Source: Escherichia coli (GTDB lineage: Bacteria; Pseudomonadota; Gammaproteobacteria; Enterobacterales; Enterobacteriaceae). Taken from it: 64,000 nucleotides of DNA. A model generated the notes under the pieces. The model was not told the DNA's origin, did no database searches, and saw nothing but the letters and a program-made list of their open reading frames with translations. Made by a program: the position numbers and the translations under genes. This document shows, piece after piece, positions 40,299 through 43,090 of the stretch (position 1 is its first letter; each line of letters begins with the position of its first letter). The DNA is taken from assembly GCF_009931435.1 (NCBI RefSeq), contig NZ_CP043414.1; one strand, written 5' to 3'.

Positions 40299-41456
40299 TT
40301 ATTGTCCTGCGAGTTGCTGAAGGGCTGTGATGACGCGGTCGGCATCGGCGGTGGTCATATCCGGGAACAGCGGCAACGAACAGATGCGTTCGCTATTCCA
40401 TTCGGTATTCGGTAACGACAGCTCGGGAAAACGCTCGCGATAATATTTTTGTGTGTGAGCGGCGCGGAAATGTAACCCGGTACCAATGCCTCTTTCTTTT
40501 AACGCTTCCATCAACGCATCGCGACTGATACCACAACGTTGTTCATCGACACGAATAATAAACAGATGCCAGGCGTGAACGTGCGGCCAGGCGGGAAGGC
40601 TTAATGGCTCAAAGGGGAGAGCTGCCAGAGCTTGCTGATATTGCAGAGCAATTTCGCACCGACGGGTGTTGAGGTGCTCTAATTTGGCTAACTGGGTCAG
40701 GGCAATCGCGGCGTTAATATCGGTCAGATTATACTTATAGCCCGGCGTTAAGACTTCAGCTTGCGGTGCACGGCCCCAGGTTTGTCTGTCATATGCATCG
40801 ACACCCAGACCGTGAAATTTCAGCATCCGTAGCTGGCGGGCAAGGTTTTCATTATCAGTAACAATCAGGCCACCTTCCGCACAGGTAATATTTTTGATGG
40901 CGTGAAACGAAAAAATAGCGGTACCTTTTGCGCCAATATGTCGGCCTTTGTAATACGTACCGACGGCATGGGCAGCATCTTCGATAACTGCGATGCCGTA
41001 ACGTTCGCCAATGGCGCGAATGGCGTCAATATCTGCTGGCGCACCGGCATAATGCACCGGAATGATGGCTTTAGTGCGTGGCGTAATGGCTGCTTCGATC
41101 GTTTCAGGCGTGACCATCAGCGTATCGCGGTCGACATCCACCATTACCGGCGTTGCACCCAACAAGGAGATCATATTGAGGGTTGAAACCCAGGTCAGGG
41201 AAGGCGTAATCACTTCATCGCCCTTGCCAATTTCCAACGCCATTAGCGTGATATGCATTCCGGCGGTGGCTGAACTGACCGCGATGGCATGCTGATTTCC
41301 CGTCAACTGGCAAAAGGCTTGTTCAATCGCCTGATTCTTCGGACCGGTTGTGATCCAACCGGATTCGAGAACCTCTTTAACTGCTGCGAGTTCCTCCACG
41401 CCCATTGCTGGTCGCGAAAAAGGCAAAAATTCTGACATTGCTTTTCCTTCCGCCAT
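40299..41456 (-). CDS. arnB: UDP-4-amino-4-deoxy-L-arabinose aminotransferase ArnB (PLP-dependent)
   Basis: DegT/ArnB aminotransferase; start ambiguous between ATG 41456 ([10 protein letters not shown]), ATG 41438 (MSEF, preceded by GGAAGGA) and GTG 41471. Confidence 0.88.
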
Positions 41457-41536
41457 TGAATACCTGTCCACTTATATTTGCTATAAAGAGTGTTGTGTAT
41501 ATTTTGCCATTTGGAGCGAAATTCTAAGGATAGAAT

Positions 41537-41553
41537 ATTAACTTAACCTTAAG
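41537..41553 (-). promoter_or_regulatory. Candidate PmrA (BasR) box in the arnB/ais divergent region
   Basis: On the arn strand reads cttaag-gttaa-gttaat, a direct hexamer repeat with 5-nt spacer resembling YTTAAK-N5-YTTAAK; about 85-100 nt upstream of the arnB start. Confidence 0.4.
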
Positions 41554-41745
41554 AAATTAATATTAGACGTAAATATTGAAATTTTTATATTTTTTCTTAT
41601 TTAGGCTTTGCATTTGGCAAAATTTTGAGGCATTTTGCCGGCATCGTAGGATTTTTAATATTACACCAACTGCTAATTATCGCCAGAAATGTCGCTCAAT
41701 TTCACGGTAATTGTCTGGTTGCGCTTGTCTATAGGTGGAGTTTAC

Positions 41746-42348
41746 GTGTTAGCTTTTTGCCGCTCTTCGTTGAAGTCAAAAAAATATTTCATCATTTTAC
41801 TGGCGCTCGCTGCAATTGCCGGACTGGGTACTCATGCCGCCTGGAGTAGCAATGGTTTGCCACGTATCGACAATAAAACACTGGCCAGACTGGCACAGCA
41901 GCACCCGGTTGTCGTTTTGTTTCGCCATGCTGAACGTTGCGATCGTTCAACCAATCAATGCTTGTCAGATAAAACAGGTATTACGGTCAAAGGTACCCAG
42001 GATGCCCGTGAACTGGGCAACGCTTTTAGCGCTGACATCCCTGATTTCGATCTTTATTCCAGTAATACCGTCCGGACCATTCAGTCGGCGACCTGGTTTT
42101 CAGCGGGGAAAAAGCTGACGGTAGATAAACGACTTCTTCAATGCGGTAATGAGATTTATAGTGCAATTAAGGACTTACAAAGCAAAGCACCTGATAAAAA
42201 TATCGTTATTTTTACCCATAATCATTGCCTGACATATATTGCTAAAGATAAGCGTGATGCGACATTTAAACCTGATTATCTGGATGGTTTAGTCATGCAT
42301 GTAGAAAAAGGCAAAGTTTATCTGGATGGGGAATTCGTTAACCACTAA
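41746..42348 (+). CDS. ais: Lipopolysaccharide core heptose(II)-phosphate phosphatase Ais (histidine phosphatase fold)
   Basis: 200 aa from a GTG ([15 protein letters not shown]); signal peptide; RHAER histidine-phosphatase motif; divergent from arnB. Confidence 0.85.
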
Positions 42349-42812: not shown

Positions 42813-43090
42813 AGGAGTATTCCTTATAAATAAAAAGAAACCATGAGAATACGGCAACTTAGAAATATGTGAAAGTGACAGTAATCTCTTTTGCGATGAT
42901 AACTGTACTTATTATTATTTTTGTGTGTATCGGTAAAGTGTGTTTATTTTTTCGGCGTTTAATTATTTAAGAAGTATTTAGTTACAATAAGTGACTAGAT
43001 CCCTTTTTTCGCTCATTGAATCCTCTGTGCCAGGCAGTACAATCCCGCAGCTTTGGGAATTTTGATTTATTGCTTGTGGGAGAGGGGAAA

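Follow-up and report, generated by a model that had tools for sequence, protein, structure and literature searches.

A probable PmrA/BasR operator between arnB and ais of Escherichia coli, and its possible role at both divergent promoters

The spacer between the divergently transcribed arnB and ais genes of Escherichia coli contains a 17-bp direct repeat, CTTAAG-GTTAA-GTTAAT, at positions 41537 to 41553 on the minus strand of the 64,000-nucleotide stretch of DNA that we analyzed (here called the window). Its sequence, the chance expectation, its conservation and the literature together make it highly likely (probability of about 0.9) that in this repeat we have the known operator through which the response regulator PmrA (BasR) acts on the arnBCADTEF promoter. 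The site itself had already been found, since a 2023 study of an EPEC strain labels the exact 17-mer in the E. coli arn promoter as a PmrA consensus site (PMC10729948). We describe below what can be read directly from the DNA, namely, the sequence of the box, its position relative to published transcription starts and its conservation, and then consider whether the same box might also serve ais.

The original prediction had placed the repeat in an AT-rich spacer of about 270 bp, at 41472 to 41745, between divergent arnB and ais. Both gene identities are right, as NCBIfam equivalog scores and RefSeq annotation agree: ArnB scored 736.8 bits against NF008658 (cut-off, 631) and Ais scored 392 bits against NF011945 (cut-off, 142). 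The region from 41300 to 41900 was matched in 5,418 of 5,426 complete E. coli genomes, with a best identity of 99.5%, and an Rfam scan of the same interval gave no match. In the RefSeq annotation of the 99.5%-identical E. coli locus, arnB starts at window position 41438 and ais has a GTG start codon at 41746. The arnB gene (also called pmrH, pbgP or yfbE, and likewise annotated in MG1655), the first gene of the arnBCADTEF operon, thus occupies 40299 to 41438 on the minus strand, and ais (pmrG), encoding the phosphatase for heptose(II)-phosphate in the core of lipopolysaccharide, occupies 41746 to 42348 on the plus strand. Since these are the annotated starts, the spacer runs from 41439 to 41745 and is 307 bp long. 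The predicted AT richness therefore stands (GC content of 0.33 over the 307 bp and of 0.24 to 0.29 over 41475 to 41699), but the boundary on the arnB side, and with it the length, does not; the boundary at 41472 was set by an upstream in-frame GTG of a mechanically called open reading frame.

The repeat is present just as it had been described. The plus strand at 41537 to 41553 reads attaacttaaccttaag, and on the arnB strand half-site 1 (CTTAAG) lies at 41553 to 41548 and half-site 2 (GTTAAT) lies at 41542 to 41537. The two half-sites form a direct repeat with a 5-bp spacer, GTTAA, and an 11-bp periodicity, which are the defining features of a PmrA box. The suggested likeness to PmrA/BasR sites proved to be close: the box fits exactly the form CTTAAG-N5-NTTAAT, by which the verified Salmonella PmrA boxes have been summarized (PMC3973317), and it deviates from the consensus YTTAAK-N5-YTTAAK at one position (G for Y). 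The strict Salmonella form occurs once in the 64-kb window, versus 0.01 matches expected, and arose in 2 of 2,000 dinucleotide shuffles of the 307-bp spacer. We rejected the loose consensus, YTTAAK-N5-YTTAAK with one mismatch, as a source of evidence; it gave 6 matches in the window versus 3.2 expected and also appeared in 347 (17%) of the 2,000 spacer shuffles, which is not above chance. Other matches to this loose consensus lie at window positions 2752, 23723, 42966 and 47199, again in a number not above chance, and the one at 42966 to 42982 falls in the nudI-yfaZ spacer. The motif match alone is only moderately persuasive, and it is the comparative evidence that carries the case.

To place the box in a wider context, we collected 80 ArnB loci from species-representative Enterobacterales genomes, 78 of which were usable for counting boxes. 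A box was counted if it had no more than one mismatch and lay on the arnB strand within 300 nt upstream of arnB. By this rule, 57 of the 78 species carried one, versus 4.6 ± 1.8 expected from dinucleotide shuffles (maximum, 9). We then aligned eight spacers, those of the window and of the seven loci in which ais is divergent from arnB. The box is the most conserved 17-mer of this alignment, with a mean column identity of 0.96 versus 0.71 (standard deviation, 0.12) over all windows of that length. Comparison with experimentally bound PmrA sites thus bears out the original prediction, in that the box is orthologous to them and conserved above the DNA that flanks it. Conservation within E. coli was set aside as uninformative, because a control 30-mer from a poorly conserved part of the spacer was nearly as frequent (5,370 of 5,426 genomes) as a 30-mer spanning the box (5,397 of 5,426).

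Several features of the aligned and related loci deserve mention on their own account. Ranking second in conservation among the 17-mers of the spacer alignment (0.93) is an island, TCAATGGCGGAAGGAAA, at 41443 to 41459 on the minus strand, which comprises the arnB ribosome-binding region (AAGGA) and a conserved upstream in-frame ATG. The arnB start codon is itself disputed, the protein having 379 amino acids in PGAP (start at 41438) versus 385, beginning MAEGKAM, in MG1655 (in-frame ATG at 41456); with the MG1655 start, the spacer would measure 289 bp instead. All eight aligned sequences keep this upstream in-frame ATG as well as the block ATGGC.GAAGGAAA, and this block could be either coding sequence or a ribosome-binding site. 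Loci of the Citrobacter freundii group (L005 to L008, L010, L013 and L016) have CTTAAG-GATAA-ATTAAC at the orthologous site, half-site 2 being mismatched at two positions. Since both the TTAA core and CTTAAG are palindromes, a reading on the opposite strand gives the higher score there, and the orientation of these boxes is encoded by the flanking bases only. Finally, in Citrobacter amalonaticus S646 the PmrA box is separated from arnB by an insert of about 210 bp in the arnB 5′ untranslated region (L004:2275-2490). The inserted DNA belongs to a dispersed repeat of intergenic regions, of which E. coli genomes carry a median of 5 copies at 80 to 90% identity in unannotated DNA; the insert puts the box 310 bp from the arnB ATG and leaves the box and the −10 element intact.

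We located the box relative to the arnB promoter by using published transcription start sites. A differential RNA sequencing table for MG1655 puts the primary start of arnB at 2365854(+) and that of ais at 2365723(−); both, together with ugd, are among the ten most strongly induced (PMC12987492, Table 1). Since the MG1655 spacer aligns to the window without gaps (window coordinate = 2407366 − R, where R is the MG1655 position), these starts map to 41512 on the minus strand and to 41643 on the plus strand. The box lies at −41 to −25 of the arnB transcription start, centered at −33, and the distance that had been called plausible is therefore right. A −10 hexamer, TAGAAT (41521 to 41526, minus strand; −14 to −9 of the mapped start), begins 10 bp downstream of the box, and we found no −35-like hexamer at the arnB promoter. 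A TAnnnT hexamer is found 10 to 11 bp after the box in the sequences that we inspected, comprising all Escherichia, Salmonella diarizonae and Citrobacter R56. Unlike the spacing between the box and the ais −10 element (see below), that between the box and the arnB ATG differs among the sequences, at 98, 107, 108 or 310 bp. The position of the box agrees with the footprint of PmrA in Klebsiella pneumoniae, which begins at −22 (PMC2565834). The arnB −10 element is polymorphic at window position 41524, reading TAGAAT here and in strain H9Ecoli and TAAAAT in MG1655 and in the oligonucleotide used for the EPEC strain (PMC10729948); both forms match TATAAT at five of six positions.

This arrangement suggests how the site would work at arnB. 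Phosphorylated BasR would bind CTTAAG and GTTAAT as a head-to-tail dimer, with the half-sites 11 bp apart center to center. The box would then stand in for the arnB −35 element at −41 to −25, ending 10 bp before the −10 hexamer, and BasR bound there would recruit RNA polymerase to arnB in the manner of a PhoB-type activator. In PhoB-type promoters the activator site replaces the −35 element, and the 11-bp direct-repeat pho box ends about 10 bp upstream of the −10 element. The arnB box shares this layout with pho-box promoters but has a different regulator and a different half-site sequence, so the analogy is one of mechanism only. We infer BasR binding and activation at the arnB box from knowledge of the family and from the literature.

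The closest known system is the pbgP (pmrH)-pmrG box of Salmonella enterica, where Wosten and Groisman reportedly obtained a PmrA footprint in the intergenic region in 1999 (cited through PMC1525208 and PMC3973317). That box occupies the orthologous position, and the Salmonella diarizonae sequence CTTAATGTTAATTTAAT aligns column for column with CTTAAGGTTAAGTTAAT of the window, from which it differs at three bases in the 17-mer. Both boxes are 98 bp from the arnB ATG, and the Salmonella locus has the same divergent ais/pmrG neighbor and the same conserved ais −10 block as the window.

Box 1 of K. pneumoniae pbgP (TCTTAATATTATCCTAAGC) resembles the site in the window in being a direct repeat of two hexamers, with 5 bp between them, that lies upstream of arnB/pbgP, but half-site 2 is CCTAAG there and GTTAAT in the window. 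That box is footprinted by Salmonella PmrA, and K. pneumoniae PmrA binds both of its half-sites head to tail (PMC3973317 and PMC2565834). The sequence CTTAATATTATCCTAAG, which we found in four Klebsiella/Raoultella loci (L052, L058, L062 and L064), is exactly the K. pneumoniae sequence reported to be PmrA bound and footprinted; ais was not found next to arnB in any of these four. In the Klebsiella promoter there are also a PhoP box and a second start site, and the E. coli/Salmonella lineage is without the PhoP box (PMC2565834).

Within E. coli, the eptA-basRS P1 and pmrR promoters, which lie outside the window, belong to the same regulator and regulon and have been described as PmrA box dependent (PMC8129183). 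At that locus each of the opposed transcription units has its own box, whereas arnB and ais have one box between two divergent promoters.

Expression of both genes has been tied to PmrA (BasR). In E. coli, pbgP (arnB), pmrC and pmrG (ais) have been used as PmrA-activated reporter genes (PMC3140997), and yfbE (pmrH) and ais (pmrG) are among the confirmed members of the PmrAB regulon (PMC1525208). BasR is listed as controlling the arn operon, which goes down along with basS-basR in serum (PMC4145685), and ais covaries with arnB, eptA, ugd, pmrR and basR in transcriptomes (PMC4145685 among the sources). A literature search found nothing on a pmrG or ais promoter.

The ais promoter can be placed from its mapped start at 41643 (transferred from MG1655 2365723(−), PMC12987492), which gives a 5′ untranslated region of 103 nt. 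The −10 hexamer, CATTTT (41631 to 41636, plus strand), is at −12 to −7 of this start within an invariant block, GGCATTTT, and the −35 hexamer, TTGCAT (41608 to 41613, plus strand), lies 17 bp upstream of the −10. In the spacer alignment, these two elements fall on the islands that rank third and fourth in conservation (0.91 and 0.82, respectively). Between the box and the ais −35 hexamer, at 41554 to 41607, the alignment shows a stretch rich in A/T tracts and poorly conserved in sequence. A consensus promoter scan matched at 41564 to 41591 on the plus strand and at 41705 to 41676 on the minus strand; neither match agrees with the published starts, and we discarded both. The scan missed the real arnB and ais promoters alike, as is expected of activator-dependent promoters.

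One local difference between species touches the ais promoter. In the columns at window positions 41622 to 41630, beside the ais −10, two non-coli Escherichia species, Citrobacter R56 and Salmonella have TTTAAGGCATTTT or CTTTAAGGCATTTT, with a PmrA-like half-site, TTTAAG, whereas E. coli has TTTGAGGCATTTT. Lying at about −20 of ais, this half-site could play a part in regulation in those species.

The original prediction had also suggested that one site could serve both genes. From the sequence comparison we rate it at about even odds that the same box is the sole BasR site for the divergent ais promoter too, acting from 98 bp upstream. To look for a second site, we built a position weight matrix (PWM) from 29 distinct orthologous boxes and scanned the eight spacers with it. 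No second PmrA box was found in any of them, the next best score being at most 9 versus 13 to 19 for the box. Counted from the ais −10 block (AAAATGCC on the arnB strand), the box lies at a distance of exactly 83 bp in six of the eight spacers and of exactly 73 bp in two, those of Salmonella diarizonae and one Citrobacter amalonaticus; the Salmonella box is thus 10 bp closer to the ais/pmrG −10 than is the box of the window. Of the 10 loci that a pattern scan of metagenomes gave, 4 were unrelated and matched by chance. The six relatives had distances of 83 bp (three loci), 84 bp (one locus) and 73 bp (two loci). The 84-bp case is an Escherichia-like contig (L083:1149-1243) with one extra base in an A-run, and because of it the exact spacing cannot be called absolutely fixed. 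Overall, the distance is held at 83, 84 or 73 bp while the intervening sequence diverges. The 10-bp step from 83 to 73 bp fits a constraint on helical phase, as far as very few independent insertion or deletion events allow this to be judged.

If the box does serve both genes, its geometry would differ greatly between them. Its center lies at −33 of the arnB start but at −98 of the ais start (−88 in Salmonella). The first position is typical, and the second is unusually distal for activation by a single response-regulator dimer. We tentatively suggest, as a reading that we put at somewhat less than even, that one BasR dimer works in two modes, activating arnB from the −35 position and ais from about 98 bp upstream in a manner dependent on helical phase. 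BasR at the box would in that case act on ais across an A/T-tract spacer that keeps its length of 83 bp, or one full helical turn less in Salmonella, as its sequence drifts.

It is also quite possible, at odds of roughly one in three, that the box serves arnB only and that ais is induced by BasR indirectly, or via a weak site that we did not recognize, or because silencing of the AT-rich spacer is relieved. A box centered 98 bp upstream of the ais start is outside the usual range of a single dimer. Read on the ais strand, moreover, the box has two to three mismatches in the Escherichia coli, E. albertii and Salmonella spacers, and its PWM score is lower on that strand throughout the eight spacers. 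The phylogenetic distribution points the same way. The seven loci with ais as the divergent neighbor of arnB are the E. coli reference (L001), two other Escherichia species, three Citrobacter and one Salmonella; beside the reference locus, only 6 of the 80 species-representative loci (L002 to L081) have ais adjoining arnB, and in most Enterobacterales the box stands upstream of arnB with no ais next to it. It looks as if the divergent pairing is specific to certain lineages and was added beside an arnB operator that is older. Against an arnB-only role stand the coregulation of ais with arnB, the lack of any other box-like site in the eight spacers, and the spacing between the box and the ais −10, which is held despite divergence of the sequence.

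A different account, proposed for an atypical EPEC strain, has PmrA mainly repressing or occluding the promoter at the box and QseB acting as the activator; we think this improbable for the window. It draws on the upregulation of arnB and eptA in a pmrA qseC double mutant, on a predicted sigma-70 element within the box, and on a mobility shift of a box-containing 60-mer by QseB-P, the sole electrophoretic mobility shift assay that we found on an oligonucleotide with this box, which used QseB-P and not PmrA (PMC10729948). That assay suggests that QseB, a paralogue, can use the same DNA as the PmrA box. Occlusion by PmrA is nevertheless hard to square with the PmrA-dependent activation of pbgP, pmrC and pmrG in E. 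coli that is the premise of PMC3140997, or with the listing of the arn operon under BasR control and its fall with basS-basR in serum (PMC4145685). The orthologous K. pneumoniae box is also footprinted by Salmonella PmrA, and induction of the promoter there depends on PmrA; a box placed 10 bp upstream of a −10 element with no −35 element is the layout of an activator site.

The least probable account, a functionless chance match in TTAA-rich, AT-rich DNA, can appeal to the loose one-mismatch consensus, which occurs in 17% of spacer shuffles and is not enriched in the window, but the strict form is rare (once in the window and in 2 of 2,000 shuffles), and pure chance is excluded by the conservation of the box across species, where it is the best-conserved element of the spacer and stands upstream of arnB in 57 of 78 species versus 4.6 expected.

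Operator function of the box for PmrA (BasR) at arnB thus remains the reading that we favor. As the box had already been described, it is an ordinary, known control site, and its confirmation adds nothing new. Because the arn operon and ais act in the modification of lipopolysaccharide and are the basis of chromosomal resistance to polymyxin and colistin, the arnB-ais promoter region is medically relevant.
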